DNA of 64,000 bases, taken from Nibricoccus sp. Its GTDB lineage: Bacteria; Verrucomicrobiota; Verrucomicrobiia; Opitutales; Opitutaceae. A program made the position numbers and the translations under genes. The stretch is taken from positions 1,950,263 through 2,014,262 of the forward strand of contig JASGHG010000001.1 of assembly GCA_047602425.1 (NCBI GenBank), in the 5' to 3' direction. The notes under the pieces are model-generated. The model made no database searches and was not told the DNA's origin. It saw only the letters and a program-made list of their open reading frames with translations. Positions 2,887 through 24,418 of the stretch are shown here, piece by piece. The stretch's first letter is position 1, and each line of letters starts with the position of its first letter.

Positions 2887-2900
2887 TTTTCACTGTTAAC
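2887..2900 (-). promoter_or_regulatory. Copy of the recurrent PUL promoter-region motif TTAMCAGTGWAAM
   Basis: Plus strand reads TTTTCACTGTTAAC, so relative to the minus-strand gene starting at 2667 it reads GTTAACAGTGAAAA. Confidence 0.45.
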
Positions 2901-3080
2901 TAACCCCACGCCAGACTGGCATGTGCCACCAGCCGCTTACGAGCGGTCGTAATTCGTAAGCCTGTCGGATAACGAATCACCTTGGTTTGGGCCATTATAA
3001 CCACATATTCGATCGCGAACACTTCAATTGGTTTACAATTCGCCAAAACAACCCCGATGGTGAATCCGTGTTCCAGGGCA

Positions 3081-3128
3081 AAATAAAAGCCTTGGCTCAG
3101 TTGAATCGAGCCAAGGCTTTGTATTTTT
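3081..3128 (-). terminator. Rho-independent (bidirectional-looking) terminator downstream of the TonB-dependent receptor
   Basis: Perfect 10-bp stem GCCTTGGCTC / GAGCCAAGGC (3089-3098 / 3108-3117), flanked by an A-run and a T-run. It lies about 50 nt past the stop at 3169. Confidence 0.7.
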
Positions 3129-3168
3129 CGTCTTAAATACAGGCCGCGAAGAGCCTGAAAGTTAAGAA

Positions 3169-6100
3169 CTAGAATTTCACGTTTGTCATGAGTGTATAAC
3201 TACGTGGCTGCCTATATTCACCAAGGCGGCTTGCCACCGATTCACGAGCAGGCGAGTTATAGTCGCCATTCAATGGGCGCATTGCGATTGCATCTGACCA
3301 AACCGGTCGTGTCTGGCCGAGAAGATTATCGATGCGCAGTGTGAAATTCAGCTCCAAACCCTTTCTCGGCTTCCAAGTGTAACCCAGCGTACCCGTCCAA
3401 ACATCCCAACTAGGCGTGTACACCGGAGTATAGGCATTAACCGTCGGATCATCGGCAAAAGTCGTCGGACCAGTCGCAATCGTATCCGCTCCGCGATAGC
3501 CAGCAACTAACCGACCACGATACTGATAACCGAGGCCAAAGCGGAGTCTTTTGAACATGCCAGTTTGTATAGCGTAATCGCTATAAGCATTGATTACATA
3601 GTTATCCAAAGATATCACTGTGTCCTTTTGGTAGTTGGCGGCGTTGCTATATAGGCTGTTAAAATTTGAAACAGCAGACGCTTGATCGATAGAGAAACGC
3701 CCTGGAAACCCAGCAGCAGCAGCAGCAGCAGCCGTAGTATAATAGAAATTATTAACAACTGCAGTTCCAGGTGCGCCAGGGGCCACTGGAGTGGGATCCA
3801 ACGTCGCACCTGTATCTAGTAGAATCTGTTTAAAGAGTTCCGTATGATCGGCGATGTACTTCAGGCTCATCGGATAGGAATTCACGTTTTCGAGTCGATT
3901 CTTGGAAATGCTCGCATTGATTCTCCAACCAGCGGAGATGTTTCCAACAATCTCGATTTCATGACCTTGGTTGTGGCGCCCGCGAATGTCATTCGCGGCT
4001 GCAAGAACATCCGAGCCACCACGTAAATTACGACCGGTGGAGCTATCGTCACCGATCACATTAGCACCGTAAATTCCGTTAATATTACCATTAGTATTCA
4101 CTTGGCCAACACCTGTACCGGCTGATACATAGGCATTAATTTCTTTGTCCTGATAATATGTGTAATTGATGCTCAGCCTTCCCTTGAAAGCCGTAAAGCG
4201 GGTGATAATGTCATAGCCCTTTGCCTCGGTCGGAGGCAGAATCGAGCCATCGACGGCAGGAGTGGTGCTGGCTGGGACCGAATAGCTCGTCGCACTGTTA
4301 TAACCGATCGACCACCACGGAAGGACGTGATATAGACCACCAAAAGCCCAATTTGTTTTTCCGCTTTTTAACGCAGGGGAATTGTAGTCATCCTGAAAGC
4401 GATCACCTTCGTACCGCAGATCCCTGAGCGCCACGCCTGATGGATTCGGTCCGGTGACCAACAGGCCGTTACTCACCACGTTCGCAAGGCTTTGCGTTGA
4501 ACTTGTCGGCCGATTTACCGCTGGGATGGCCCCGCCTCGAACACCGAGTGAGTTATATGGCTGATAGGTTAGGTTTGCCCAGTCAGCAGGAGCATCCGGG
4601 CGCCAAATTACGCTTCTACCATCCCAATCAGCAGGATAGTCACCGATACGCACAGACTGTCTGACCAATTGATTGAAATTGTCGCGCCTGAGGGCACCGG
4701 TAACAATGAGCTTCTTTTCGAAGAATGATGCATTCATGCCCGTCAGTGCATAATTGTACTTCGTAAACGAATTAGTTGCGCCCGTCGGTTGCGTCACCCA
4801 GCGCGGCTGGATTGTCGTATTCATAACGCTATTGGTTACGCCGTTCTGGGTATAGTTATTATCTTTAAAGGTGTATGCTCCGGTCGGGACATCGGCCGAA
4901 ATAGAATCGCCCCAGTAACTGCGCACCCGGATGACGTCGAGATCCTGCCAGCGTCGGTGATCAGGATTGACACCGAGAGACCACGCGATGCCTGGTCCAT
5001 TCCTAAAGCGCTGTTGGGTCGAACCACCCATGACATTGAAACCGTAATTGCCCCATTTGCCGAAATCCTTCAGATAGGCTGCGCCCAAGCGCCATGCTTT
5101 TGTCACACGGTCCGTCATGTTTTTGGTATAAGTGTTGTCACCATAGGGCCGGCCAAAATTGGGATTCTGGCTGCCGTCGGGAAGCACCCGGTTGATATCA
5201 ATATAGGTCGCCGAGGCCAGAGAACCCGTCGCAAGCCGGTTGACTTCGCCCTTTGCGTCAGCGTCTATAGCGGCCAGTTCAATCGAAAAATTATCACTGA
5301 ACGAGTGTTGAATAGTGAGCTGTGCATTGCTGTAATATGTTGTATTAATAGGGCCGCGGACAGAGTTCACGAATCTCTGGCTGGGAGTCGCGTAGTGTGC
5401 ATAGGGGCTCGCATTTATAGCGTCGAAACGGTTGCCCGGCAGATCCATTAATTCGCCAAACAAAAGCGGGCCGCCAGCAGTACCGAGGCCGTTTGTCCCG
5501 ACTTGAACATACGGACCATAAGGCGTGGTTGTAGAGCCACCGGCTCCCAAGGTCATTGGATCGTTTTGGTACTCCAAAACGGTATTACCAAGTCCAGAAC
5601 TGGGCGCGTATACATAATAATTACTTCCACGAGTACCAATACCGAGCGGATTTAGAACTGTGCTACCGCTGCTCGTAGTTACGGCCGATGGACCCGTTGA
5701 GGAAGTAACCGCTGCTCCCGTACCCAAGCCAGTACTACCGTTAAATGTTGTCGTACCGTTCCACCCCAAAAACTGGTCACCCAGCGCAAGAAGGGGGATT
5801 TGTCTCTTTTGCTGGCCGCGCTCGCCTTCCAAGCGAACTGTCGTCTTCGACGTGGGCTTGAAGCTGATAGTCGGAGAAATCGCCTGATTGTTGTCTTGCG
5901 CGAAATCGCGCCAGCCATCGGCCTTTTGATACAATATGTTAAGTCTAGCGGCAAAATATTTGTTGATCGGCTGGTTAAGATCAACCGCCGTTCTATAAAA
6001 GCCATATGAACCCGCAGTAGCGTCAACACGTCGGAATGCGCGGCTAAATTCGGCTCGCTTTGTCAGGGCGACTTGCGTGCCACCGAGTGTACCATTACCG

Positions 6101-6669
6101 AACATCACAGCATTGGGGCCGCGGGCGAAATCGACACGATCAAGGTTGTAGGTGTCATTCGGAGCATAGTAGGGAAAGAAATTTACCATGCGATTACCGG
6201 AAGCGTTGGCACCGCGCTGCTGACCCAAGGATGTAAGGCCAAAAGTATCGCCGCCACCAGCCGGATCCAAAATTTTAACTGAATTCGTCGCCCATTGGCT
6301 TGCTGAATTAATATCACTGATGCCCATCGCGTCGATGAACTCGCGGGTAAGGGATGAATAGGCCATCGCCGTATCTGTTAATTTGAGCGCCATGCGGCCG
6401 CCCGTCAGCGCACTGGTAGGGGCGAACCCGACGTCGCGGTTCGCGCTCACTTCGAACGGGGAAAGAACAAGCGGCTCGTCGGCTGGCTCTGCCGTGTCTT
6501 TAACCGATTCAACAGAAACTTTAGTCTCTTCTGGCTTCTTCTGGCCTGATTGGGCATCTTGACCGAAAGATTGCAGTGCAAATAAAAAGAATGTAGAAAC
6601 TGGTAAGACGTATCGCGGCAGCGACATCAGCCGACTGCGGATACGAAAGCTGGTCGTGTATGTGTTCAT
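3169..6669 (-). CDS. TonB-dependent outer-membrane receptor (1166 aa)
   Basis: Signal peptide, then a plug-like N-terminal region (VLSPFEVSANRDVGFAPTSALTGGR..., DRVDFARGPNAVMFGNG). A long beta-barrel-type sequence follows, ending in the terminal aromatic residue (...TNVKF). Confidence 0.9.
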   Translation of the reverse strand: MNTYTTSFRIRSRLMSLPRYVLPVSTFFLFALQSFGQDAQSGQKKPEETKVSVESVKDTAEPADEPLVLSPFEVSANRDVGFAPTSALTGGRMALKLTDTAMAYSSLTREFIDAMGISDINSASQWATNSVKILDPAGGGDTFGLTSLGQQRGANASGNRMVNFFPYYAPNDTYNLDRVDFARGPNAVMFGNGTLGGTQVALTKRAEFSRAFRRVDATAGSYGFYRTAVDLNQPINKYFAARLNILYQKADGWRDFAQDNNQAISPTISFKPTSKTTVRLEGERGQQKRQIPLLALGDQFLGWNGTTTFNGSTGLGTGAAVTSSTGPSAVTTSSGSTVLNPLGIGTRGSNYYVYAPSSGLGNTVLEYQNDPMTLGAGGSTTTPYGPYVQVGTNGLGTAGGPLLFGELMDLPGNRFDAINASPYAHYATPSQRFVNSVRGPINTTYYSNAQLTIQHSFSDNFSIELAAIDADAKGEVNRLATGSLASATYIDINRVLPDGSQNPNFGRPYGDNTYTKNMTDRVTKAWRLGAAYLKDFGKWGNYGFNVMGGSTQQRFRNGPGIAWSLGVNPDHRRWQDLDVIRVRSYWGDSISADVPTGAYTFKDNNYTQNGVTNSVMNTTIQPRWVTQPTGATNSFTKYNYALTGMNASFFEKKLIVTGALRRDNFNQLVRQSVRIGDYPADWDGRSVIWRPDAPADWANLTYQPYNSLGVRGGAIPAVNRPTSSTQSLANVVSNGLLVTGPNPSGVALRDLRYEGDRFQDDYNSPALKSGKTNWAFGGLYHVLPWWSIGYNSATSYSVPASTTPAVDGSILPPTEAKGYDIITRFTAFKGRLSINYTYYQDKEINAYVSAGTGVGQVNTNGNINGIYGANVIGDDSSTGRNLRGGSDVLAAANDIRGRHNQGHEIEIVGNISAGWRINASISKNRLENVNSYPMSLKYIADHTELFKQILLDTGATLDPTPVAPGAPGTAVVNNFYYTTAAAAAAAGFPGRFSIDQASAVSNFNSLYSNAANYQKDTVISLDNYVINAYSDYAIQTGMFKRLRFGLGYQYRGRLVAGYRGADTIATGPTTFADDPTVNAYTPVYTPSWDVWTGTLGYTWKPRKGLELNFTLRIDNLLGQTRPVWSDAIAMRPLNGDYNSPARESVASRLGEYRQPRSYTLMTNVKF

Positions 6670-6808
6670 AAAACGATTTTGGTGTTAGGGGATTGCTTGG
6701 ATTGCTTGGATTGCTAGGCGGGGGTGGGGATAAGAGCTCGCGAGGATACTCTTTGTTGGCAGTGGCAATCCTGATAAAAGGCCCCTTTTAGTACAACGGC
6801 TGCCTTAG

Positions 6809-6821
6809 TTTCACTGGTAAC
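6809..6821 (-). promoter_or_regulatory. Copy of the recurrent PUL promoter-region motif
   Basis: Plus strand TTTCACTGGTAAC equals GTTACCAGTGAAA relative to the receptor gene starting at 6669. Confidence 0.45.
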
Positions 6822-7107
6822 TATATTTGGCTACAATATAGATTCTGAATATTGATTTGGAAAGCTTTACCTTTTCGCCGCACATCTGTAAAAACGCCCT
6901 CGCAAAGGACGGATACAAACAGGAATACGAGTTTGCATAGCTGGCTTCTATCGGTTCAGGACGTGTTAGATAATATACTACACCAAACGACTCTGTGAAC
7001 CCGTCCTATAAATCCTCAACCATATGCCTTGATGACTACCCAGAGAGCCCAACCTCTCCATCCAACCCCACGTTGTTTTGATCCGCATTTTGCCATTAAA
7101 TTGTGCG

Positions 7108-7731
7108 TTAATCGGCGCTGATCCACAGGAGGGCATTACGTAACATTGCCGCAAAAGGCGCTGTCAGCCAAATTTCTGGATGATGCCCCGCAGTGAACAC
7201 GCACACCCGTCCTTCCCCGGTCTTTCGTGTCCAGCCAGCCGGCTGAACGCCAAAGGCAGTTGATGACCGCAAAAATATGTCGATATCACCTTGGTCGATC
7301 GACATCCGATACTGCTCGTCAGTGACGACAAACGAACCAATGCTGCCAGACGTGATTACATGAGACGCCCGTGGAATCAACTGTACCGGGCATTCTGGCG
7401 GATGATCGATAAATGCGCCTCCGGTTATACTGGCAACTGGCTCTGTAGAGAGACGACCTGCATTTCCTGAATGCAACACCAGCAGCCCTCCGCCTTGTTG
7501 TACATATCTGTACCAAATCTCCCCTTGCTGCAGAAAAATATCACCAAACTTCAGCCTCAAATTTGCTGCAATAATTACCGCATCATACTCAAACATCAAT
7601 GAAGTCGGGTTGATTACATTTTGCTCATACCAGTCGAATTCAAATGGTACTGAATCAATTAGCGGTTGCAGGCCTGCACGTACGTCGGCAGCGGGATGAA
7701 ATTGGTCTCCACAGATAACAAGTAGCTTCAT
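7108..7731 (-). CDS. ThuA-domain protein (trehalose-utilisation-like, class I glutamine-amidotransferase-like fold)
   Basis: MKLLVICGDQFHP..., GGGLLVLHSG, ITGGAFIDHP, VVTDEQY, GEGRVCVFTAGHH. This is the pattern I recognise from ThuA family proteins. I chose the start at the internal MKLLVICG. Confidence 0.7.
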   Translation of the reverse strand: MKLLVICGDQFHPAADVRAGLQPLIDSVPFEFDWYEQNVINPTSLMFEYDAVIIAANLRLKFGDIFLQQGEIWYRYVQQGGGLLVLHSGNAGRLSTEPVASITGGAFIDHPPECPVQLIPRASHVITSGSIGSFVVTDEQYRMSIDQGDIDIFLRSSTAFGVQPAGWTRKTGEGRVCVFTAGHHPEIWLTAPFAAMLRNALLWISAD

Positions 7732-7999
7732 GCTAAAAACCACAATCAAACGCCACCGCTAAAGAGCAAGAGCGCAAGTCCATCACAGTACACTCAGCTT
7801 CACTGCAACTCTGTTGTGCTGGATCCATAGAAAATCGATGAGCAACTAACTGCTTCTTATGATTCTCAGGTCGACTGAGCCAATTTGACCAGAAAATTAT
7901 CATCCGATGGATTACCAGTGTAAACTTCGGATTGCTCGAAATGTAGAATACAAAGGGAGAGAGCTGCGGCCCTTAATTATAAATTTTCACTTCTTCATT

Positions 8000-8767
8000 A
8001 TGAGTTCAATATTCGATCTGTTTACACTAAATGGGAAGACTGCTGTTGTGACTGGTGCAGCACGAGGGCTTGGCCAGGGCATCGCGATCGCCCTAGCAGA
8101 AGCAGGTGCTGATATCGTCGCTGTCGATATCCTTCCTGCAGCAGATACTGTACACCGAGTCGAGACGCTCGGGCGCAAGGCCATTTCGATCACTGCCAAT
8201 CTCGGCGAAAGGACATCTGTCTCCAAAATCATCGAAGACTCCAGAAAACATTTCAGCACCCTCGATATACTTGTTAATTGTGCAGGAATCATCCGCCGAG
8301 AGGACTTCCTTAAATTTTCGGAGAAAGACTGGGACGACGTGATGGGAATCAACATCGATATGGTCTTTTTTCTCAGCCAAGCATTTTGCAACGACGTGAT
8401 TTCGCGTAACAGCACGGGCAAAATAATCAACATTGCCTCAATGCTTTCATTTCAAGGAGGCATCCGTGTTCCATCTTATACGGCCTCAAAAAGCGCCGTC
8501 GCTGGCTTAACTCGGCTCATAGCCAATGAACTCGCCGGTAAAGGCATCAACTGCAATGCAATTGCCCCAGGATATATGGCAACAGACAACACCGCGCCCT
8601 TACGTGCTGACGCTACCAGAGCAAACGCCATTCTTGACCGCATTCCTGCCGGACGCTGGGGCACACCCGACGATCTCCGGGGCGCAGTAGTATTTCTTGC
8701 ATCGACTGCGTCAGACTATGTAAATGGATTTACTCTAGCAGTCGATGGCGGTTGGTTGGCTCGCTAG
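8000..8767 (+). CDS. kduD: 2-dehydro-3-deoxy-D-gluconate 5-dehydrogenase-like SDR
   Basis: MSSIFDLFTLNGKTAVVTGAARGLGQGIAIALAEAGADIV, NCAGI, YTASKSAVAGLT, and a C-terminal ...GFTLAVDGGWLAR. This is a classical SDR with a KduD-like N-terminus. Start moved to the internal Met at 8000. Confidence 0.8.
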   Translation: MSSIFDLFTLNGKTAVVTGAARGLGQGIAIALAEAGADIVAVDILPAADTVHRVETLGRKAISITANLGERTSVSKIIEDSRKHFSTLDILVNCAGIIRREDFLKFSEKDWDDVMGINIDMVFFLSQAFCNDVISRNSTGKIINIASMLSFQGGIRVPSYTASKSAVAGLTRLIANELAGKGINCNAIAPGYMATDNTAPLRADATRANAILDRIPAGRWGTPDDLRGAVVFLASTASDYVNGFTLAVDGGWLAR

Positions 8768-8798
8768 AACACCATAAGAGCACTCGCTATCCTTGATA

Positions 8799-8813
8799 CT
8801 TACCAGTGTAACC
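8799..8813 (+). promoter_or_regulatory. Copy of the recurrent PUL promoter-region motif
   Basis: CTTACCAGTGTAACC, upstream of the plus-strand gene at 9161. Confidence 0.4.
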
Positions 8814-9160
8814 TAAGTTATATTGTACATGGGTAAGGTCATGATACATAATTGCCGAGTTAAATGTTAGTTATCCGATGTTATAAGCAAGAAGACCGAC
8901 GCCCCAAGACGATACGTAACATCTGTTTGTGGACAGATTAAATACGTGTTTTTTTGGATATAATACGTGGTCAAAATTCATGCTCAGTAAGTTAGTTCGT
9001 TTGGGTATCCTGGGAATACTCCCCGCGGAGGGGTCCGCGGGGAGTGCTTTGTCACCTCAGATAACAAGAACCCAGCATCATTAGGAACGCATATTAAGCG
9101 GAATTAAATATTGATACGCTCCACGATGTTAACCCAGCCCATTGCACATCTCAGACTTAA

Positions 9161-10021
9161 ATGCAAAACCCGCCACACGGTCAAAGTTCACTGCCCCCTC
9201 GCCTTTCAAGCCACGTCAGTAGGTTTATAGGAATCGACGAAGGTAGAAATAAACTTTTGAAATTCTCCCCAGCGAATCCACAAAAAGAGTGGTGCATTTC
9301 CATTACTGGAAAGAGCCGAACACTTCAAACACTTGATGAAAATCGTCTACTAATGGTCAGCGACACGGGATTTTCAGAAATTGATACAACGAACGGTGAA
9401 ATGTTATCGGAAACTAAGTGCTGTTCTAGTGGAGTCATTTCCGCATTTCGGCTGCAATCAGGTCACACTTTCATCGGAGGCCTCGACCTTTTTAACAGGA
9501 AAGGAGTAACGTTCGCCGAACTCGATAGTCATACGAAACTGGTCAGGCAAACTACTTTCCCTGGTGACTATGTAAGACGAGCTACACTTACGGCCACTGA
9601 CACTATATTATTTACATGCGATAGTCGTGTGTACGAAGGAGACTGGTCCGGGGCAATTATCCGGGAATTTGCTGCAACTGGATTTCGTCACGCATGGAAA
9701 GCAGTCCGGACAAAAAATAATACAACTATTATCAGTGCTGGGTATGGGGCCTTTGTCGCTGAATTCGACATTAATGGCGGAATCATTCAGCGATGGGAGT
9801 GCACAAAATTCGTCGAGGCAATACGTCCCCATTTTTTTGGAGACTTTGAACTATTGCCTTCAGGCGAATTACTTGTCTGCAACTGGTTGGGGCATGGCGA
9901 GGATCTTGGTCGCACCGGACATTCCCTGCTGCTATTTTCTAGCGATGGGGACCTACTTGCGACGTGGCAGGATGCTGCGCGCATCTCTTCGCTACAGACT
10001 TTCGTGCTCACAATAGATTGA
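9161..10021 (+). CDS. Hypothetical protein, possibly a beta-propeller-like fold
   Basis: Clean 286-aa ORF with protein-like composition and beta-rich repetitive segments. I recognise no family. Confidence 0.5.
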   Translation: MQNPPHGQSSLPPRLSSHVSRFIGIDEGRNKLLKFSPANPQKEWCISITGKSRTLQTLDENRLLMVSDTGFSEIDTTNGEMLSETKCCSSGVISAFRLQSGHTFIGGLDLFNRKGVTFAELDSHTKLVRQTTFPGDYVRRATLTATDTILFTCDSRVYEGDWSGAIIREFAATGFRHAWKAVRTKNNTTIISAGYGAFVAEFDINGGIIQRWECTKFVEAIRPHFFGDFELLPSGELLVCNWLGHGEDLGRTGHSLLLFSSDGDLLATWQDAARISSLQTFVLTID

Positions 10022-10119
10022 GCCTAGCGCAATTCATTCGATCCAACCAGCACATGAATTTTGAAATTATCAGTAATACAAAATCTTTTCCGGCACCTAT
10101 GGTCACTTTTTGAAATAAC

Positions 10120-11082
10120 ATGCTCGTACCACTAAAATTTCTACCGATCTACAAGGAACGAGTCTGGGGCGGCCAAATGTTAGCACGCTCGTTCGATCGT
10201 ATTTTGCCAAAAAGCAACTCCATCGGAGAAAGCTGGGAAATAGTTGATCGACCCGAAGCACAATCGGTGATTGCCGAGGGCCCGCTAAAAGGACTCACCT
10301 TACGATCTGCGATCGAGCGTTACAGGGACAAACTGATGGGACCAGCCTGGCCCCCGGAGCGTCCATTTCCAATACTTGTGAAATGGCTAGATTGTCGCGA
10401 ACGCCTCAGTCTCCAGGTGCATCCACCTGCGTGCGTTGCACCCGAACTCAAGGCTGAACCCAAGACAGAAAACTGGTATATTGCACATGCAGAGCCTGAT
10501 GCAGCGCTTATTGTAGGTTTGCGGCAAGGTGTCACACGAGAACGTTTTGAAACTGCACTACGCGCGAACGCCCTTGAACAATGCGTGCACCGTTTTGGTG
10601 TAGCTACAGGCGATTCCATTTTAGTACACAGTGGTCAAATACATGCCATCGATTCGGGAAACTTGATTTTAGAAATCCAACAAAACTCTGACACAACCTA
10701 TCGTGTATACGATTGGGGACGAGCAGGCCTTGATGGAAAGCCACGTCAATTACACATTACAGAGTCCCTCAAATCAATTCGCTGGGACGACTTTGAGCCC
10801 AAACCCTTGCTGGCCTCAAAACAATCAACAACCATTGCGGATGCCAAAGAATTCAGAATCCGGCGTATTGTCTTGGAAGGCGCTTCCACTCTGAAGTTCG
10901 ACGAAAAGGAAGAACCCCGAATCCTAAGTGTGGTAACAGGCGAACTAAACTGCACCACCTTCGATTCGCTTACAACCGTGCGGCGAGGAGAAAACATCAT
11001 TATACCGTATGGTTTCTCCTACGCTTTCACTGCGGCAACTGCAACGACACTCCTAGTTACAGAAAATTTTGCTCGTGCGTAG
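10120..11082 (+). CDS. manA: Class I mannose-6-phosphate isomerase
   Basis: IYKERVWGG, ESWEI, LSLQVHP, ENWYI, HAIDSGNLILEIQQNSDTTYRVYDWGR. These are the cupin phosphomannose-isomerase motifs. Confidence 0.85.
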   Translation: MLVPLKFLPIYKERVWGGQMLARSFDRILPKSNSIGESWEIVDRPEAQSVIAEGPLKGLTLRSAIERYRDKLMGPAWPPERPFPILVKWLDCRERLSLQVHPPACVAPELKAEPKTENWYIAHAEPDAALIVGLRQGVTRERFETALRANALEQCVHRFGVATGDSILVHSGQIHAIDSGNLILEIQQNSDTTYRVYDWGRAGLDGKPRQLHITESLKSIRWDDFEPKPLLASKQSTTIADAKEFRIRRIVLEGASTLKFDEKEEPRILSVVTGELNCTTFDSLTTVRRGENIIIPYGFSYAFTAATATTLLVTENFARA

Positions 11083-11179
11083 TCAAACTGCGAAGATAAG
11101 CAGCTTCGTCTGACTGTTTCAGTTACCAGTGGAAAAATCGTTAAAAAGAATCGACCAATAGGTGCGTCTATCGAACTGC

Positions 11180-12352
11180 TCAATTAGGTAGAACTTCTAC
11201 TCGAAGTTCTAGCGGTAGTTTGTCAGTCCATCTCCGGACCGAACGTAAATCATCGCGAGCCCAAATACGCAGCACATTGGCAATGACATCTCTTTTAAAC
11301 GGTTCGTTTTTAATTTCGGCTAAAGCAAAATTTGCAGCCGATTCTGGATCATTCATTGCTGTTAATTCAGCGTAGACTCCAATCGAGGAATCCTTTTCGC
11401 AGCTAAGAACCCAACGCCGCGCTCCCGCTGCATCGTAGTCGATCCACGCTGCAAGCAGCGCACGGGTGGCTTCGTGAGCCAAAGGCCCATCTGGTAATTT
11501 GGAAAGAGCCCCGCATGCTTCACTCACACTGCGTTCAGCCATGCATGAAATCACATTGGCAACGGTTCGGTTTTGCACCTCACCCGGCTGCAGCATCGCC
11601 ATCGCAAGAAACAGTGCTTCGTCTGTGCGATTCTGCGCGTGTCCCAAAATGACTTGAGCAAGCAAACGGTCTTGATCTGCACATTCCGTCTGCCCGCTCG
11701 CCCAAAGCGCCGCACTCGTGTAATTTTGCGTGCCCCACTCCCGCGCTATATGCTCTGTTAGTTCACCCGACCTCCAAGTCGGGTCGAGAGCCGAAAACCA
11801 AAGCATTGCATAATCAAATTTATTTTGCTCAACAGCAACTTCACATGCACATGCCAAAAACCGCTGCTTTCGCGCATCATCGGTGAGCGTTCCGAAAAAC
11901 GTGCATAACCAGTCTATATCATTCTGTACACAGACGTTGAGAGCTCGATTTAGTTGCTGATCAGTCAGGTCAATCTGTTTTACTAACCAATCAATTGCAC
12001 TATGCGGATCGTGGCTGCACCAAAGTGCCAGCGCCGTCAATCCGAGCTCACTATTACGTCTTTCACGCCTAAGCGCACAAAAAATTTCTGAGGCGTTCTC
12101 TTCCGACAAGCGGGCAGCCAGTGCACTTTCATCTAGCTCGATCAAGCTTGATCCACCGTGGCGAAGAGTTTCGCAACCGATTGTGTTGATGGCCCGAGAC
12201 CTGTCGCCAATGACCAATAAGCCGCGTCTATTGGGACTATTCCGTGAATGTTCATTCCGAATAGGAGCAACAGTGAGAACCCCACTAACTAGCAGACAAG
12301 CGGCAAGAGTCGCAGCAAACATCGCTCGACTAGTTTTACTTTTGCGATGCAT
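11180..12352 (-). CDS. Hypothetical exported all-helical repeat protein
   Basis: 390-aa ORF with an N-terminal hydrophobic anchor or signal (AMFAATLAACLLVSGVL) and helical-repeat-like composition. No family recognised. Confidence 0.5.
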   Translation of the reverse strand: MHRKSKTSRAMFAATLAACLLVSGVLTVAPIRNEHSRNSPNRRGLLVIGDRSRAINTIGCETLRHGGSSLIELDESALAARLSEENASEIFCALRRERRNSELGLTALALWCSHDPHSAIDWLVKQIDLTDQQLNRALNVCVQNDIDWLCTFFGTLTDDARKQRFLACACEVAVEQNKFDYAMLWFSALDPTWRSGELTEHIAREWGTQNYTSAALWASGQTECADQDRLLAQVILGHAQNRTDEALFLAMAMLQPGEVQNRTVANVISCMAERSVSEACGALSKLPDGPLAHEATRALLAAWIDYDAAGARRWVLSCEKDSSIGVYAELTAMNDPESAANFALAEIKNEPFKRDVIANVLRIWARDDLRSVRRWTDKLPLELRVEVLPN

Positions 12353-12441
12353 ATCTCTCCTCTACGGGAATTCGATGGAAAGGCTGTGCGCGTTTTCACA
12401 ACAAGACACGCGCACAGCGTTCGTTCTAAGCAGCGCCTACT

Positions 12442-13635
12442 TCAACGTGCAAACGTCAACGTTCCGAAGCCAAGCTGGTCGAAACCTCCACTGTTGGGGC
12501 CATAGTCCCCTCCACCACCTTCGGGACGTGTTTTGCCAGCATATTGCTGTATATAGTTAGAAGAAAGTCCCTTGAGCTTGACGTAGTGAGCGTAGAGCAG
12601 TTCCCACGACGGCCGGATATCGCCGCGACTGGTCGAGGATATAACTGTCTGGTTTACATTGTCGCAGTTATTGTAGGTCGTATATGGGACTGAATTTCCG
12701 AGATTGTATTCAGCGATATATTCGAACATCGCATGCATTCTAGCGCGAGCATCGCCCCAAGGATTGTAGGAGAACATATCCTGACCCTGATTATATGCCA
12801 TCTGGCAGAAAGAACCGAAAAGCGAAACATCCAGACAGGAGTGGCCTTGATCCCGACCGCTCTCTTGGCACTGAGCAATGCCACCCGAGGTGGTATTATA
12901 TACGAACGGCGCGGCATTGCTTACCTTGCCGTTTCCTGCTCCATTTTTAAAGTAATTGATCGCTTCGTTGAATTTAGCAGTGTCGTCACACAGGATACCG
13001 ATCGCCAAAATGCTGGCCATGTTACATGCATCCCAGTTCGCCCAATAGTGGCTAATGCAGGCACCATTGTGGTTCACGAGAAAATCATGATTCATAGGGT
13101 AGAAGACATTTAGCATCATGTTTTTGAACGCGGTTTGATTCGCCGCCGACCAACCGCTATAGCTTCGCATGATCTCCGCAACATTGGCGAACTGATAACC
13201 ATAGATGCCAGCAGCCAAGTATTTATCCGAGGTGCCGCCAATGCTGGTTAGCGTAGAGCTCCATGCATTCAAAATTTGTACAGCCTTGTCAGCGTTGGCC
13301 GTGGTGCCGGCAATTTTCCACCGCAACGCGTTTTGATAGGCCGCCGCGATATCGTTAAAAAGCTTACTGTAGTTTTCAGCATGAGTGCCGTCAGCGCCGC
13401 GATACACGGTCGCTACCGGCCCCTGCATCGTGTACGAGGATGATGAATGTGAATTTGCCAGTAGCTTGTTCCAACCCGAGAGCCACGGTTCGGAAGAAGC
13501 ATTAACCTTCGTCTGCATGCGTGTGAAATCTGCTGCAGTGTGCAACATGCCTGGATGGCTGAAGGCAAGCGATTGGACCGGGACTAGACTCGACAACAGG
13601 AGCGCTAACACACCTGTTAGGATGCGATTTTTCAT
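12442..13635 (-). CDS. Secreted polysaccharide lyase with alginate-lyase-type fold
   Basis: Signal peptide, then FSHPGMLHTAADFTRMQTKV...AVQILNAWSS...HYWANWDA...ESGRDQGH. This resembles alginate-lyase (PF05426-like) proteins. It is a paralogue of the C-terminal domain of the 1-2667 product. Confidence 0.65.
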   Translation of the reverse strand: MKNRILTGVLALLLSSLVPVQSLAFSHPGMLHTAADFTRMQTKVNASSEPWLSGWNKLLANSHSSSSYTMQGPVATVYRGADGTHAENYSKLFNDIAAAYQNALRWKIAGTTANADKAVQILNAWSSTLTSIGGTSDKYLAAGIYGYQFANVAEIMRSYSGWSAANQTAFKNMMLNVFYPMNHDFLVNHNGACISHYWANWDACNMASILAIGILCDDTAKFNEAINYFKNGAGNGKVSNAAPFVYNTTSGGIAQCQESGRDQGHSCLDVSLFGSFCQMAYNQGQDMFSYNPWGDARARMHAMFEYIAEYNLGNSVPYTTYNNCDNVNQTVISSTSRGDIRPSWELLYAHYVKLKGLSSNYIQQYAGKTRPEGGGGDYGPNSGGFDQLGFGTLTFAR

Positions 13636-13890
13636 GGAGTTTTGTTTTTGGGGTGATACGAAAATCTTTTAAGATTTTCTGGTAAGCCCTACCACGAATC
13701 CGTCACGAAAATCTGTACTGGGTCGGCTCTTCTTTAATAAAGAAGAGCCAGCTCATCCATGTTTTCAATAGCTCAACTGTAGATGGAGAATGCCTCCTTT
13801 GCAGCGAGATATTTATAGTGTCAATTTGCAGTAGGGTAAGGGGAGATAGTAAATCTCTCTAGCATAGGCTAAACCTTCAAATGTATTTCT

Positions 13891-13907
13891 GGTTACACTG
13901 GTAAACC
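13891..13907 (-). promoter_or_regulatory. Copy of the recurrent PUL promoter-region motif
   Basis: Plus strand GGTTACACTGGTAAACC equals GGTTTACCAGTGTAACC relative to the lyase gene starting at 13635. Confidence 0.45.
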
Positions 13908-14147
13908 AAGTCTCCATTTCATCAACGTGAAGTATGTGCCCATGCACGCTGCGCAACTATTTGTTCACAAATCAATCGACCCATTGGGCTCACGAAACTT
14001 GCATCAGATGATCCAACTGAAAGTGCTGCTTGTCGCAAATAGCGATATGGAATTCGGCCTCGCATCTCTGTTTGGATAGGATAGGCAACAATATCTAAAC
14101 TAGTAAGCCCCAAATTTGCCTAAGAAAAGAGGGTTTTCTTGGTTGGT

Positions 14148-14162
14148 GGTTAACAGTGAAAC
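14148..14162 (+). promoter_or_regulatory. Copy of the recurrent PUL promoter-region motif
   Basis: GGTTAACAGTGAAAC, about 140 nt upstream of the GH88 start at 14294. Confidence 0.45.
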
Positions 14163-14293
14163 TCTTCCCTTTGTTGGCAATTCTCATTGGAGGCGTCTAG
14201 CTAGTCGGAAGTCAGGTCGTTCAATCGATAACCCTAGGCTTTAGCGAGGCGATTTGGACACTGGCACTCCTACCATTTCTCTTTTCTTATATA

Positions 14294-15493
14294 ATGAGTA
14301 CACAAACCGCTGTGACCATGCCCCTCACTTCCACTTCCGAGTCCGTCAGTACTGAAGGACTCCAAAAAGCTTACGATCTCTGTGTCGCAAAAACCCACAA
14401 AAATATTCAGATCCTAGCGGACTCGCCCAAGACTACTTATTCGTTCGATAAAGACGGTTGCTATTCTCGCTGGCCAGAAGGTTTTTTCGAAATTGGAAAT
14501 TGGACCACCTCTTTCTTCACCGGCATGGCGCTGCTCGCGTACGAATCCACCCACGATAGTTTTTTCTTAAAGCAGCTTAACCGCCTTACAGGAGTATACA
14601 CAGATAAAATCACCCGTGCATCTATGGACACAATGCACGACCTGGGTTTCCTCTATTCGCTCTACTCTGTAGGGCTTTGGAAAATTACTGGCTCCACCGA
14701 ACATCGCAATCTCGCCCTGAAGGCAGCAGAAGAGCTTGCAAAACGTTATATCCCAAAAGGTGAATACATTCGTGCTTGGGGCAGGACTGACGACAATCGT
14801 GACGAGTACGCTGGCTTGGCCATCATCGACTGCTTGATGAACCTGCCACTCCTTTTCTGGGCTTCAAGAGAAACAGGAAACCCGTTCTTTCACGAGATTG
14901 CGATCAAACACGCCGACACCACGGCCAAAAGCTTTGTAAGAAAAGACTATTCCGTCTGTCACGCGTACCGTTTTGATCTCACCACCGGGCAACCTGATCG
15001 TGAAGATAACTATTGCGGCGCTGGTATTGGATCGCATTGGGCCCGTGGCACCGCTTGGGCCGTCTACGGCTACTCGATGACCGCACGCTACACCGGTGAA
15101 AGCCGCTACCGCGACCTCTCACAGAAAATCGCTGAACGTTTTCTTTCGTTGCTCGACGGTGAGACCGTGCCTCTTTGGGATTTCCGGATAAAAACAGACA
15201 TCCGCGACAGCTCGGCAGCCTCAATCATGGCGTGCGGTCTCTACGATCTGGCCGAGCACGGATCGAGCACGCAGCATTTCGCTCGATACGCAGATACTCT
15301 ACTCGGCAAACTGACGAAAGACTACGTGAACTACGATCTAAACATTCACGGCGTGCTAACTCGGGCACAAGTCGGCGACGGTATTGACAAGGACAAGAAC
15401 GTCAAAGGGCGCGAAGTTTATACAAGTTGGGGTGATTATTTCCTGATGGAAGCACTCGCCCGAAAACTGAGAAAGCAAAAGCCGTACTGGTAA
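14294..15493 (+). CDS. Glycoside hydrolase family 88 (unsaturated glucuronyl/uronyl hydrolase)
   Basis: GNWTTSFFTGMALLAYE, HDLGFLY, IIDCLMNLPLLFWA, GSHWARGTAWAVYG, TSWGDYFLMEAL. These are typical GH88 blocks. Confidence 0.85.
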   Translation: MSTQTAVTMPLTSTSESVSTEGLQKAYDLCVAKTHKNIQILADSPKTTYSFDKDGCYSRWPEGFFEIGNWTTSFFTGMALLAYESTHDSFFLKQLNRLTGVYTDKITRASMDTMHDLGFLYSLYSVGLWKITGSTEHRNLALKAAEELAKRYIPKGEYIRAWGRTDDNRDEYAGLAIIDCLMNLPLLFWASRETGNPFFHEIAIKHADTTAKSFVRKDYSVCHAYRFDLTTGQPDREDNYCGAGIGSHWARGTAWAVYGYSMTARYTGESRYRDLSQKIAERFLSLLDGETVPLWDFRIKTDIRDSSAASIMACGLYDLAEHGSSTQHFARYADTLLGKLTKDYVNYDLNIHGVLTRAQVGDGIDKDKNVKGREVYTSWGDYFLMEALARKLRKQKPYW

Positions 15494-18309: not shown

Positions 18310-18432
18310 ATTTTCTGTTGGGGTCGTAAGAAAAGTCGGTTGATGGAATAGCGACACCATCAACATCAATGAGGAGGCATCGTTCCTTTCCCAAACCCCA
18401 TCTATTTTCTGAACGCCACTTTGTCTTCAGAT

Positions 18433-19863: not shown

Positions 19864-19870
19864 AGGGGTT

Positions 19871-21964
19871 TTAGAGTTGGAGGAAAACAGCAGAGTGGGC
19901 AGCAAGCCAGCCTTCGGCCGAAGGGACCTGCGGGATGATTCGGCGTGACTTTATACTACTGATATCAACCGGGCTGGCACGGTGGTTGACGATCACCAAA
20001 TGCGAACCAAAGCGCGCCGTTTCTATACCTTTACGTGGGGAAAGAGCCGCCTTAGGTGAAGCACCTACCAGCACTGCCACCGGCGTTTCCTTGAGCAGCA
20101 CCACCGGGTGCATTTCTCGTCGCCCGTAATTCGGCGGGACGATAGGCATCGTACGCCGCGAATATGAATACCCGTATTGAAAGCCGAACGAGTATACACC
20201 CCCAAGACCAACCGCAGACTTCATCATCGCGGCCTGTCCAGATTGGATGTATTTTCCCAAAGTTTCCCCGCCGCGAAACGCCACGGTAGTCCAACCATGA
20301 GGAATCAACGCCTCGCGCCATTGAATGCAGTCGAATGCAACCGACTCCTCCTCGATGCCGAATGTCCGGCGCACAAGTTCACAGCCCGGGCCATGGAAAA
20401 GTGTACCACCAGCCTCAACAAATTTCCGCACGGCGGCCTCTAACACACTATTGTCGCCCAAATCGTAGAGAGAATTATGTGGAACCACGAGATACCTGTA
20501 ATTCCCAAGTACCCCCGCCGCCACCTGGTCCGGATGAAGAATGTCGACGTTGTAGCCCAAATCCACGAATTGATTGTACCAGCCGAGCAGGTCCATGCGA
20601 TGCCGCCCGCCTTCGTCGACGGGCAGTGGCTCAAAAAGGCTCATTTCGGCCGGAAAGAGAATCGCAACCTCCTTCGTGCGTGGCTGCCGATCAAGGAGAG
20701 GCATCACCTCGGCCGCCCATCGATTGCCGGTTCGTATCGAATCCTTGAATACATCGTCCATGCGGAACATCACACCGCCGTCGTCCAGACCACTGTAACC
20801 ATACATGTGCATCGCCGACGCACCCGCGGCTACAAGGGTAGCCATCGCTTCTGCCGGTGGCACCGTACGGTAAATATCGCCATTAACATGTCGTCCGAGA
20901 TAAAGGCCACCGGTAAAAGATCGTCCTAAGTTGGCCGAACGCATGATCGCCCCTTCCACACTCACCGCCATTGCGTCAGGAAGGTTTTCCGCGTTGAGGG
21001 GTGAGGTGATGAACAACGCTCCATCGACATGCGGTGCCACTTTCCAAAGATCGAGCGCGCGTTTTGCAGTCGGCCAATATGATTGCTCCGGGGGATTGAA
21101 AAAATAGCCCCATTGATGCAACACTGGCTCGATGAAAAGCGCCGGTTCCAATTCGCGCCAACGTCGTTTCATCGATGCAAAATACTGCTCCATGATTTCC
21201 GCCAGCCAAGCTTGGTTATCGATCCAACGATAAAAATCAGGCGTGCGGCGCGCGAAATCCTCCCCCGATGGAATGGCGCATCCCACCCAGTCGAGTTCTT
21301 CGGGACGCAACCAATACTCAGATGGTGATAGCGCACTGAACGACTGCGCATTGAGCTCATATCGTTCATTTAGCCGAGAGATATCGCCTTTATAGCGTTT
21401 TTCTAGCCATGTCAGGTAACGCTCGCGCCCTTCTGCATCAAAGCTGGGCTTTGGAATCGGATCGAACATCGTCTGCATCACTATGCGATCCTCATCGCGA
21501 CGTCGCATTCCTGACCGGTACAACTGCAGCAATCCACGTACGTGGTCGACCATGCTCTGCTGGGCCAGTGGCGACCAGTACTTGTAAGTACCCATGAGTT
21601 TTCCATCTTGCCGTACGGCTTCTTCGCCTCGCACCGGAGGTACGTCGCGAATTGTTGGATACAAGTTATCGCCGCAAAGATAGATCGCTAAGTGGGAATA
21701 ATCGAGACCGTGCTTCGCCGCCTCATGCATCATAAACTCCTGCATGCCCACATAAATGCTGGCAGGCTCTCCCCGATATCGTGAAAAAAAATCTTCCCAC
21801 GGCTTCGAGTCGAGATTGATCGAAGTGAAGCCAAGCGAGGCAACTTCAACGATGCCCCGGCGTACAGCCTCACGATCGCTATAAAATGGCTCGAAAAAAT
21901 TACCGAACCAAATGCTCAACATCGGATTTTTGACAGATTCTTGCTGGGTAGCACGTGTGGACAT
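19871..21964 (-). CDS. Putative glycoside hydrolase, GH42-like (TIM barrel plus trimerisation-type domain)
   Basis: 697-aa ORF. Its central segment VAILFPAEMSLFEP...GWYNQFVDLGYNVDILHPDQVAAGVLGNYRYLVVPHNSLYDL...FVEAGGTLF resembles the beta-galactosidase A4 trimerisation-domain pattern. The family assignment is tentative. Confidence 0.5.
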   Translation of the reverse strand: MSTRATQQESVKNPMLSIWFGNFFEPFYSDREAVRRGIVEVASLGFTSINLDSKPWEDFFSRYRGEPASIYVGMQEFMMHEAAKHGLDYSHLAIYLCGDNLYPTIRDVPPVRGEEAVRQDGKLMGTYKYWSPLAQQSMVDHVRGLLQLYRSGMRRRDEDRIVMQTMFDPIPKPSFDAEGRERYLTWLEKRYKGDISRLNERYELNAQSFSALSPSEYWLRPEELDWVGCAIPSGEDFARRTPDFYRWIDNQAWLAEIMEQYFASMKRRWRELEPALFIEPVLHQWGYFFNPPEQSYWPTAKRALDLWKVAPHVDGALFITSPLNAENLPDAMAVSVEGAIMRSANLGRSFTGGLYLGRHVNGDIYRTVPPAEAMATLVAAGASAMHMYGYSGLDDGGVMFRMDDVFKDSIRTGNRWAAEVMPLLDRQPRTKEVAILFPAEMSLFEPLPVDEGGRHRMDLLGWYNQFVDLGYNVDILHPDQVAAGVLGNYRYLVVPHNSLYDLGDNSVLEAAVRKFVEAGGTLFHGPGCELVRRTFGIEEESVAFDCIQWREALIPHGWTTVAFRGGETLGKYIQSGQAAMMKSAVGLGGVYSFGFQYGYSYSRRTMPIVPPNYGRREMHPVVLLKETPVAVLVGASPKAALSPRKGIETARFGSHLVIVNHRASPVDISSIKSRRIIPQVPSAEGWLAAHSAVFLQL

Positions 21965-22017
21965 AACGGATAAAGATTAGTTTAGCTTCCCATTCCCACG
22001 ACCCAATACTTCAGGCA

Positions 22018-22031
22018 TTTTCACTGTTAAT
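22018..22031 (-). promoter_or_regulatory. Copy of the recurrent PUL promoter-region motif
   Basis: Plus strand TTTTCACTGTTAAT equals ATTAACAGTGAAAA relative to the gene starting at 21964. Confidence 0.45.
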
Positions 22032-22118
22032 ATAAACAAGCACACCGCAGCGGAGGGTGTGAGTATTGCGGCATTCGGCGTCGGACTCAACAAATGAGCG
22101 ATCATCCATGCGCTAAAG

Positions 22119-23159
22119 TCATTTCGAACACGTTGTAACGTCGCCCGTTGCTACGTCGATTCTCCAAGAATCCGGCTCCCATGATTGTGATGGTGCCAGG
22201 CGCAACTGACCTCCACCAATTTGAACTGGATGCCAAAGATATCGGCTATCCCACAACTCCTGTGGACGCCACATATCACCAAGGTAAATCACCGTTGTCT
22301 TTTTCGAACCCACGACCTTGAGAAGATTTGTCGATTGCGAAAGGTAAGTATGCGACTCAGGCGGTGCGAAATCTTTGAATTCAGACCAAGGCCCATCAAG
22401 TCGCTCCGCTGTCGCGTACTTGTTGGCATTTGGCCACCAGCCCGTGAGCTGCGAACCGATAACATAATATAGTCCGTCATAGTGGACGACCGCGCCCCCC
22501 TCAAGCGGAGCTCTGATAAAGGCAATAGCACGTTCAACGTCGAGATAGTCAGCCGAAAGTTTCGCAATATAAAACCCTTTTTCAGGACGGCTCTCGAAAA
22601 CCAGATATGCTTCACCATCGTCATCGATAAACTGACCGATGTCCCGGCTTTCCTTCCCGAGAGGACGGAAGCTGCGCACGTACTCGTAGTCGCCGTCAAT
22701 TTTGTCACAAACTGCCACACCGACACGGGCGATGCTGTAGCGCGATTTACTTCCGGGCATTCGTCCGTCCACATGCATGTATAAAACAAACTTCCCTGTA
22801 CGCACATTGTGGTAGACTTTCGGTCGCTCCAATACCCACTCGCTTCCGAAATTCTCTGGGTCGGCCAAACGTAGAATCTGATTCCTAAACTTCCAGTGCA
22901 CCAAATCCCGCGACGAATAACACGAAACACAACGTAACATCGGATCGTTGTCACGGGACCGGTCTTCACCGATCCAATACCATGTGTCGCCATATCGGAT
23001 AACTGAACCACCGTGCGCCTGAATATGTTTCCCTCGGTCGTCGAGCCAAGGCATAGCTGGCGAAATATATTCATCACCGGTCTCGGCCCATGATTTTTTG
23101 GGTGACGCAAAGATCACAGCCAGTCCGGTAAGAAACAACGCAGCGCGATTTAGATGCAT
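22119..23159 (-). CDS. Secreted glycoside hydrolase family 43-like protein
   Basis: Signal peptide, AHGGSVIRYGDTWYWIGEDRS, LERPKVYHN, YYVIGSQLTGW. The five-bladed-propeller GH43-type blocks are present. Confidence 0.7.
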   Translation of the reverse strand: MHLNRAALFLTGLAVIFASPKKSWAETGDEYISPAMPWLDDRGKHIQAHGGSVIRYGDTWYWIGEDRSRDNDPMLRCVSCYSSRDLVHWKFRNQILRLADPENFGSEWVLERPKVYHNVRTGKFVLYMHVDGRMPGSKSRYSIARVGVAVCDKIDGDYEYVRSFRPLGKESRDIGQFIDDDGEAYLVFESRPEKGFYIAKLSADYLDVERAIAFIRAPLEGGAVVHYDGLYYVIGSQLTGWWPNANKYATAERLDGPWSEFKDFAPPESHTYLSQSTNLLKVVGSKKTTVIYLGDMWRPQELWDSRYLWHPVQIGGGQLRLAPSQSWEPDSWRIDVATGDVTTCSK

Positions 23160-23228
23160 GCAAGCCTTTCGAGTAACGAAGCGTTCCCACTATTTTGCCA
23201 ACAGCCCCCTGCCACAATTCTTCGAGCA

Positions 23229-23242
23229 TTTACACTGTTAGC
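23229..23242 (-). promoter_or_regulatory. Copy of the recurrent PUL promoter-region motif
   Basis: Plus strand TTTACACTGTTAGC equals GCTAACAGTGTAAA relative to the GH43 gene starting at 23159. Confidence 0.45.
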
Positions 23243-23314
23243 TATATATCCGCTGGTTATCGACTGCGCAAAACAGATTTTTTGTATATAAAAGCAAAAA
23301 CACCAACAGGCAGG

Positions 23315-24382
23315 CTATTTGGGGCACTGCGTCCGCTGCGGCAGACTTTTGCCATCCACCCAGCGCCCCTCAACGAGGATCCGCCGACAGTGCTCAGGGA
23401 TTCCACGTTCGTTCTGATGTACAAGCCCCGCAAGAGTGCTCATCGCCACCCGTCCTATTTCATAGGAATTCTGATCAACACCAGCGTCAAAATTTCCATC
23501 AAGCAAACTGATTGTCGCCACCCCGACATCGCGCGGAACCTCATAGCCAAGCTTCTTCAAGCACTCACAGAAGCGGCCTTCGGTACAGATCAATGCGTCG
23601 GGTTTATATTTTTTCAACCAACGACTCAATGCCTCGCGAATTTGTACCTCTGTCTCGCCATCCTCGGCGACAAAAGGCGGCAAATGCCGTTCCAGTGGCG
23701 TAAGGTCATCCTGCGAGCTGAGGTAGCCAGCTCGAAAATTCCCTTTTGTGTTTCTTTCAAATCCCCGACCGCTCACGTACCCAATGCGTTCGTAACCCAC
23801 TTTGTGAGCCTGAGAAAAAGCAAGCGCACCACATTTCGTCTGATCACTTGTCACAATGTGAGCCCGAGGGTGTTTCACGGAGGCGCCAAACCGGACGATT
23901 GAGAAATTGCTCCAGTCAAAGTCCTGCAAATTCAACCCATCGCGATGAGGAGGAATCAAAATTCCACGAACATTTCGGGTCAGCAAAATCTTTTGCAGGC
24001 GCGGAACCGTCAAATCCTTAGTGAGAACAAATTCTTCTAAACGATATCCCAGTGTTTCAGCCGCATCGCGGGCACCGTTCCAGTAGGCATCGAACTCGTG
24101 CAAACGACGCAATGCCTTTGGATCTTCCCATTGGTTTATCCAAGCGACGGCGGAACGAATAGCGAGTTTATGCTTCGATTGGCGGTACGCCGAAAGCGAA
24201 GATAGCATCGGGTCAGGTCGATAACCCAATTTTTCCGCCGCCGCAGCGATCTCCTGCTGGCGCTCAAGCGAAACGCGCGGATCATGACGTAATGCAAGAG
24301 AGACCGTAACGTGTGAAACGCCTACCACACGAGCGACATCACGAAGGGATACTCGTTGGGAGCCTGAGGGTTTGGGCGGCAT
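23315..24382 (-). CDS. LacI-family transcriptional regulator
   Basis: N-terminal HTH VSLRDVARVVGVSHVTVSLALRHDPRVS...AAAEKLGYRPDP, followed by a periplasmic-binding-protein-like sugar-binding domain. Confidence 0.9.
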   Translation of the reverse strand: MPPKPSGSQRVSLRDVARVVGVSHVTVSLALRHDPRVSLERQQEIAAAAEKLGYRPDPMLSSLSAYRQSKHKLAIRSAVAWINQWEDPKALRRLHEFDAYWNGARDAAETLGYRLEEFVLTKDLTVPRLQKILLTRNVRGILIPPHRDGLNLQDFDWSNFSIVRFGASVKHPRAHIVTSDQTKCGALAFSQAHKVGYERIGYVSGRGFERNTKGNFRAGYLSSQDDLTPLERHLPPFVAEDGETEVQIREALSRWLKKYKPDALICTEGRFCECLKKLGYEVPRDVGVATISLLDGNFDAGVDQNSYEIGRVAMSTLAGLVHQNERGIPEHCRRILVEGRWVDGKSLPQRTQCPK

Positions 24383-24402
24383 ATGGCTATTTGAAGTTCC
24401 TA

Positions 24403-24418
24403 CTTACCAGTGTAAACC
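24403..24418 (+). promoter_or_regulatory. Copy of the recurrent PUL promoter-region motif, in the divergent LacI / symporter intergenic region
   Basis: CTTACCAGTGTAAACC. It lies 21 nt from the LacI start codon (24382) and about 120 nt upstream of the symporter start (24537). Confidence 0.5.

Follow-up and report, generated by a model that had tools for sequence, protein, structure and literature searches.

The Escherichia coli lac operator O1 is an odd-centred pseudo-palindrome with unequal half-sites, bound asymmetrically by a LacI-family dimer. Here, we set it and other described LacI-family systems against a 13-nucleotide (nt) motif, TTAMCAGTGWAAM, that recurs upstream of genes in a polysaccharide-utilisation cluster of Nibricoccus sp. 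(Opitutaceae, Verrucomicrobiota). The window, i.e., the whole stretch of DNA analysed, comprises 64,000 nt of contig JASGHG010000001.1 of assembly GCA_047602425.1 (C1:1950263-2014262), in a genome of 5.16 Mb with 57.4% GC. Like O1, the motif is an odd-centred pseudo-palindrome with two unequal half-sites. O1, however, overlaps the transcription start and acts by repression, and its sequence is unrelated. With about an even chance of being right, we propose that the 13-mer is the site of the LacI-family regulator encoded in the cluster, placed at around -53 of weak sigma-70-type promoters and most likely activating them.

In the local sugar regulons of the LacI/GalR family (RegPrecise-type; Ravcheev et al. 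2014, PMC4052901), as here, the regulator is encoded inside a carbohydrate cluster, one short site precedes each transcription unit and the regulator's own gene, and the site co-varies with the orthologue group of the regulator. The site studied here differs in being 13-15 base pairs (bp) long and asymmetric, with no central CG, and in keeping a fixed orientation and distance to the -35 box. For comparison, 1251 of 1303 LacI-family motifs are even palindromes, 1173 are CG-centred and 4% are odd palindromes, and 72% of the factors are autoregulated (PMC4052901). The ackA, pta and ilvB promoters of Bacillus subtilis are activated by CcpA bound upstream of the -35 box, with an effect that varies with the helix face (PMC3463425); we propose the same arrangement here, a LacI/GalR protein activating from upstream of -35. 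CcpA is nevertheless a global regulator that needs HPr-Ser-P, its cre sites are CG-centred palindromes, and the few promoters that it activates do not make up a whole dedicated regulon. The sux locus of Xanthomonas (PMC12798719) combines a LacI-type regulator (SuxR), a TonB-dependent receptor of the outer membrane, a symporter of the inner membrane and glycan-cleaving enzymes, a gene set similar to that of the present cluster. SuxR is described as a repressor, whereas the locus described here is far larger (around eleven promoters), belongs to Opitutaceae and has an activator-like site geometry. In the literature, we found no regulatory code for polysaccharide degradation in Verrucomicrobia, and no description of the motif or of the regulation of such loci in Opitutaceae. 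If our proposal is true, the motif and its regulator would be the first pair of cis-element and regulator for such a locus in this family.

Occurrence of the motif

In the window, TTAMCAGTGWAAM has eight exact matches, against 0.01 expected from dinucleotide-preserving shuffles, and allowing one mismatch adds two sites, at 23229 (-) and 11123 (+). The eight sites reported in an earlier note on this DNA are thus real, with coordinates right within 2 nt. Its site table needs amending in other respects: the 23229 entry is a one-mismatch variant, and the sites at 7912 (+) and 11123 (+) had been missed, as had two sites upstream of the window. Just 9 exact matches are present in the whole 5.16-Mb genome. 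In a weight-matrix scan of the genome, 12 sites reached 19.3 bits or more, and the 35 kilobases (kb) from position 1939743 to 1974666 contain them all. The best score outside this cluster is 18.7 bits, at a match that has no downstream TTG. The earlier suggestion that the motif defines a regulon is supported.

All 12 sites are intergenic, in a span of which 13.5% is intergenic. For 11 of them, a gene starts 54-349 nt downstream and the site is oriented toward it. Both the intergenic placement and the constant orientation, at about 55-350 nt from the start codon, had been claimed for the first eight copies; the placement extends to all 12 sites and the orientation to 11 of them. The earlier note had also named what would speak against a regulatory role, namely a similar density inside genes or in unrelated intergenic DNA. 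The genome decisively holds the opposite, with none of the 12 sites outside the cluster or within a gene.

A chance occurrence and the remnant of a repeat are both excluded as explanations of the motif. The remnant of a repeat or mobile element was ruled out on the lack of conservation of flanks and spacers. An Rfam scan of positions 1-34000 gave no match, so the motif does not belong to any known RNA. Two matches in a same-genus genome, G004 (L005:4793 and L006:4596, 60 kb apart), were also discarded: they have identical flanks and lie inside two large open reading frames (ORFs), i.e., they belong to a duplicated gene and are not regulatory.

The sites and the genes they precede, annotated with Pfam and NCBIfam, are the following (window coordinates; lengths of proteins in amino acids, aa):

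-10519, outside the window: site preceding the gene of an AhpD/CMD-like protein
-6985, outside the window: site preceding the gene of a periplasmic-binding-domain protein
2887..2899, minus strand: TTAACAGTGAAAA, with TTG at 2875-2873; precedes a giant 3162-aa multi-lyase gene, start 2668
6808..6820, minus strand: TTACCAGTGAAAC, with -35-like TTGTAC at 6796-6791 and -10-like CAGGAT at 6773-6768; precedes the gene of a 1166-aa TonB-dependent receptor, start 6669
7912..7924, plus strand: TTACCAGTGTAAA, with TCG at the -35 position; precedes a short-chain dehydrogenase gene, start 8000
8800..8812, plus strand: TTACCAGTGTAAC, with TTG after 10 nt and -10-like CATAAT at 8847-8852; precedes the gene starting at 9161
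11123..11135, plus strand: one-mismatch copy TTACCAGTGGAAA between convergent genes, with no TTG downstream
13892..13904, minus strand: TTACCAGTGTAAC, with -35-like TTGAAG at 13880-13875 and -10-like GAGATT at 13857-13852; precedes a gene of alginate-lyase fold, start 13635
14150..14162, plus strand: TTAACAGTGAAAC, with -35-like TTGGCA at 14174-14179; precedes a GH88 gene and co-directional genes to 18309
22018..22030, minus strand: TTAACAGTGAAAA, followed by TTGGGT-N16-TAAACT; precedes a GH42-like gene, start 21964 or 21922, and also the gene of a beta-helix protein
23229..23241, minus strand: one-mismatch copy CTAACAGTGTAAA, followed by TTGTGG-N17-AATAGT; precedes a GH43 gene, start 23159
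24404..24416, plus strand: TTACCAGTGTAAA, followed by TCGAGC-N17-AAAACT; precedes the genes of a sodium:solute symporter and a second GH43 enzyme, start 24537
23315..24382, minus strand: gene of the LacI-family regulator (355 aa; LacI helix-turn-helix and Peripla_BP_3 domains), the candidate reader of the motif

Some of these genes call for comment. The gene at 1-2668 is truncated by the window edge and runs to genome position 1943442 (L002:442-9930, minus strand); it encodes a secreted protein of 3162 aa with alginate-lyase and pectate-lyase domains, six MBG repeats, He_PIG and fn3. The true start of the short-chain dehydrogenase is the ATG at 8000, with MSSIFDLFTLNGKTAVVTGAARGLG, and it is the mechanical ORF start at 7907 that makes the 7912 site look genic. 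The product of the 9161 gene is unknown, and a mannose-6-phosphate-isomerase-like cupin gene comes next; a predicted untranslated leader of about 300 nt (8859-9160), with no Rfam match, precedes the 9161 gene. Downstream of the 14150 site are the GH88 gene, an unknown gene and a ketohexokinase-like kinase gene. The 11123 site is doubtful, or may be a binding site without a promoter.

Anatomy of the site and promoter geometry

We aligned 33 sites from 8 genomes (the 12 described here and 21 from seven loci elsewhere), selected by the 13-mer alone with at most one mismatch. Their consensus is (G)TTWMCA-G-TGWAAM(C), of 13-15 bp. It has a partial dyad symmetry, which the earlier note had overlooked: all sites share the CA-G-TG core and the T2/A12 pair, and the flanking G0/C14 pair is common. 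Only three of the six symmetric pairs never vary. The asymmetry, too, is conserved, the distal half being TGGTAA, TGTTAA or TGGAAA on the other strand and the proximal half TGTAAM or TGAAAM. This conserved asymmetry of the half-sites makes the site directional. The CAGTG core is free of CG in the alignment; the motif is indeed, as had been stated, not the CG-centred palindrome usual for LacI proteins.

A second element, TTG, stands at alignment positions 25-27 (T in 30, T in 23 and G in 26 of the 33 sites). The 13-mer ends 11 bp before it in most sites and 10 bp before it in one, and the 11 bases in between are uninformative, with spacers that are not conserved in a set of genomes spanning 43-67% GC. 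Of the columns beyond the TTG, position 49 carries the most information (A in 19/33, P = 7e-5), and T is found at position 53 in 16/33 (P = 3e-3). If TTGnnn is taken as the -35 hexamer, these two are precisely the -11 and -7 positions of a -10 hexamer at a 17-bp spacing, and the joint count of nAnnnT peaks at this offset, with 8 sites vs. a mean of 2.0 per offset.

The tRNA promoters of the genome provide a reference for this geometry. Among 43 stand-alone tRNA genes, 24 have TTGaCn-N16-17-nAnnTT, against 6.7 in shuffles; TTG is the dominant feature and the first base of the -10 box is not T. As the tRNA promoters match this arrangement, the TTG after the 13-mer is best read as a -35 box. Scored on the tRNA-promoter matrix, the cluster promoters have a median of 2.9 bits, vs. 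-11.2 at control offsets and 12.2 for the tRNA promoters, which suggests that they are promoter-like but weak; the TTG of their -35 hexamer is conserved and positions 4-6 are random. The predicted transcription start would then be about 47 nt after the 13-mer, which would itself occupy about -59 to -47, with its centre near -53. Of the two roles offered in the earlier note, a promoter element or a directional activator site, the strict directionality holds and the second fits best. The 13-mer itself is not the core promoter, since the -35-like TTG lies 11 nt downstream of it. In the tRNA promoters, we also observed an A-tract directly upstream of the -35 box.

GTGAAAC and GTGTAAC are like the -35 boxes of extracytoplasmic function (ECF) sigma factors, and (C/G)GTTGAA is like -10 boxes of the SigH/SigR type. 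One might thus read the element as the promoter of a dedicated ECF-like sigma factor, in which part of the 13-mer (e.g., GWAAC) is the -35 box and (G)TTG the -10 box. The element is strictly directional and bipartite, as this would have it, and a gene about 10 kb upstream, in the neighbouring mobile region, encodes a Sigma70_r4 protein. Yet the gap between AAM and TTG is 11 nt, vs. 16-18 nt in known ECF promoters, and is 5-6 bp too short, and the A/T signal falls at the sigma-70 -10 position if TTG is the -35 box. Moreover, no sigma or anti-sigma gene is common to the loci that carry the motif, where the Sigma70_r4 protein has no homologue, and the motif tracks the orthologue of the LacI protein (see below). 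We regard an ECF promoter as very improbable.

Other arrangements were tried and rejected. With the 13-mer as -35 and TTG as -10, the would-be -11 position is unconserved, and the -10-like signal lies 17 bp past the TTG hexamer. No register fits a sigma-54 geometry (GG-N10-GC). The column counts lend support neither to a -10 box ahead of the 13-mer as a general feature nor to antisense promoters in general.

Co-occurrence of the motif and a LacI-family regulator

The LacI-family protein encoded at 23315-24382 is the only DNA-binding protein encoded inside the 35-kb span. Its helix-turn-helix (PF00356, residues 12-57, E = 1.5e-12) aligns to LacI-family chains of the PDB and to CcpA, and its effector domain (PF13377, residues 193-346, E = 2.6e-10) is very divergent from solved structures. 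The 24404 copy lies 21 nt from the start codon of its gene at 24382, as the earlier note had it.

We searched for this protein in one genome per species and obtained six loci (L009-L014) with orthologues of 58-65% identity, from assemblies of Opitutaceae or other Verrucomicrobiota, including Oleiharenicola lentus. All six carry the motif. There, it precedes orthologues of the symporter, GH88, TonB receptor, GH42-like, giant lyase, beta-helix and binding-protein genes, in shuffled gene order. LacI homologues of 50% identity or less in the same search are without the motif. A more distant case is G014, a genome of the same family and another genus with 43% GC, which encodes a 44% identical orthologue together with the motif (L003): copies of TTACCAGTGTAAA flank the orthologue and precede genes of a 2-hydroxyacid dehydrogenase and a 1175-aa TonB receptor. 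In every orthologous locus (L009-L014 and L003), one copy is found just upstream of the LacI gene and oriented away from it. The distance between such a copy and the LacI start is 21-35 nt in the window, L009, L011 and L012, and 49-135 nt in six further genomes. The recognition segment VSHVTVSLALR and the hinge YRPDPMLSSLSAYR are common to the motif-bearing orthologues.

The bipartite pattern (13-mer and TTG) has 42 matches in 401 genomes of the family, distributed over 29 genomes of 15 genera; a reversed control gave 5. An orthologue of the regulator (E <= 1e-90) is present in 22/28 motif-bearing genomes vs. 1/59 others, out of a set of 60 relatives (Fisher P = 3e-14), often 50-140 nt from a motif copy, and the only relative outside the set that reaches this threshold is G014, which itself bears the motif. 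The earlier note had underplayed the link to the LacI protein, as these comparative data tie the motif tightly to its orthologues.

The evidence for the LacI protein is correlative only, and the motif is unlike canonical LacI operators (PMC4052901). One may thus ask whether another transcription factor, with its gene at some other place in the genome, recognises the site, the LacI gene being a co-transferred passenger; six of the 28 motif-bearing genomes indeed have no orthologue at E <= 1e-90. Three of these six, however, are genomes of 66-83% completeness, and all six have a single exact bipartite match. In addition, each orthologous locus has a copy immediately upstream of its LacI gene, and the LacI protein is the only DNA-binding protein common to the loci: we found no other DNA-binding gene, and no sigma or anti-sigma factor, shared by the motif-bearing loci compared. 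At least 90 kb of low-GC DNA (48-54%, vs. 57.4% for the genome), from before C1 position 1916000 to about 2006000 (about 55700 in the window), contain the cluster, which was apparently transferred, and same-genus genomes have neither the motif nor the regulator. Hence, the reader of the motif should travel with the cluster. Altogether, we hold a separate factor to be improbable.

For paralogous LacI clades (35-50% identity; L015-L019 and L039-L047), pattern, clustering and palindrome searches yielded nothing above noise. An apparent variant in their loci, TTACCAATGCGAA-N11-TTG, was rejected, as it lies inside an ORF.

Activation or repression of the cluster promoters

If the LacI protein reads the motif, the cluster would be its local regulon, with about eleven transcription units that serve the uptake and breakdown of a polysaccharide that contains uronic acids. 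It would include the lyases, the GH88, GH43 and GH42-like enzymes, the TonB-dependent receptor, the symporter, the dehydrogenase and the kinase. The same half-site would always face the promoter, and the bound regulator would aid RNA polymerase from an upstream, helix-phase-locked position, much as in class-I activation or as CcpA does at ackA. We favour an activator over a steric repressor because the site at -53 is off the core promoter, has one spacing and one orientation, and accompanies promoters that look weak.

In the classical alternative, the LacI protein bound without inducer would shut the adjacent promoters, either by excluding the polymerase alpha subunit or other contacts with upstream DNA, or by blocking an unidentified activator, and inducer would release it. 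Precedent is on its side: nearly all characterised LacI-family local regulators repress and are autoregulated (PMC4052901), CcpA represses the lev promoter from upstream by blocking an activator (PMC3463425), and the comparable sux locus is described as having a LacI-type repressor (PMC12798719). The geometry at most of the sites does not follow this precedent. A centre at -53 overlaps neither the -35 box, the -10 box nor the start site, repressor operators are not normally found at one exact spacing and orientation across 33 promoters in 8 genomes, and the promoters look weak rather than near-consensus. Repression of the cluster promoters therefore seems to us rather unlikely, if worth keeping in mind.

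A repressor geometry is nevertheless found at two candidate promoters of the opposite strand, those of the LacI and ThuA genes, where the site overlaps the -35 box or the spacer. The 24404 site overlaps a candidate LacI promoter on the other strand, and candidate LacI promoters overlap the reverse complement of the site in the window, L009, L010 and L012. The ThuA gene (start 7749) is preceded by TTTACA-17-GATAAT (7924..7896, minus strand), a 10/12 sigma-70-like match and the joint-best one in the scanned stretch 2500-15000; read on the other strand, the proximal half of the 7912 site supplies its -35 hexamer. The protein that is proposed to activate the cluster promoters would, when bound at these two places, repress the opposite-strand promoter.

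Several observations weigh against the activator reading. The case for binding by the LacI protein consists of co-occurrence, and the site is short, asymmetric and without a central CG, unlike LacI-family operators; the family consists overwhelmingly of repressors, whose operators are even palindromes of 16-22 bp with CG at the centre (PMC4052901). A search of sequencing runs for this genome and its relatives gave one DNA run, of a relative, and no RNA run. The -10 box gives a modest signal, as nAnnnT is found at exactly 17 bp in 8/33 sites and at 16-18 bp in 13/33. The 11123 site has no promoter geometry, and those at 7912 and 24404 read TCG in place of TTG. Finally, a start about 47 nt after the 13-mer would leave a few genes with leaders of only 6-13 nt, namely the binding-protein and GH88 genes of L014 and possibly the GH42-like gene of the window. 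The leaders of the cluster (window, L009, L010 and L014) are C/T-rich before confirmed start codons, e.g., ccttccctccttcATG, and have no Shine-Dalgarno sequence.

A more general claim, which we advance tentatively and with somewhat less than even confidence, is that this clade of divergent LacI-family proteins in Opitutaceae consists of dedicated activators, which would act from an asymmetric operator without a central CG at -53 in one orientation, bring RNA polymerase to each promoter of a horizontally mobile polysaccharide-utilisation island and repress their own divergent promoter. In our reading, the motif defines a horizontally mobile polysaccharide regulon. If the activator reading is true, this would be a rare case of a LacI-family protein dedicated to the activation of a whole regulon, and the orientation rule would make the mechanism directly testable. 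The material for doing so is at hand: a single genome offers about eleven natural promoters, and its relatives offer dozens. The motif may also serve as a marker to trace the mobile gene cluster across genomes and metagenomes, and it points to promoters that may be sugar-inducible, in a phylum for which genetic tools are scarce.

Genomic context

Just upstream of the first motif site, the low-GC region encodes a large serine recombinase, two RepB/ParB proteins, a DUF932 protein, an HTH_3 protein and a 388-aa Sigma70_r4 protein.

The second TonB receptor locus, at 29.1 kb, is without a copy of the motif, as had been noted. Two palindromes, GTAACTTAC (29080-29088) and the different AACCGTTAAGGTT (29134-29146), are found there between a truncated LacI gene (28244-29050) and the gene of a 780-aa TonB receptor. 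They are probably the operator of the truncated LacI regulator and unrelated to the 13-mer.

Outside the window, at C1:2388522-2391778 and 2425174-2431080, we observed two near-duplicate arrays that hold about 40 of the 84 predicted tRNA genes. These arrays may be part of a large phage or mobile element.

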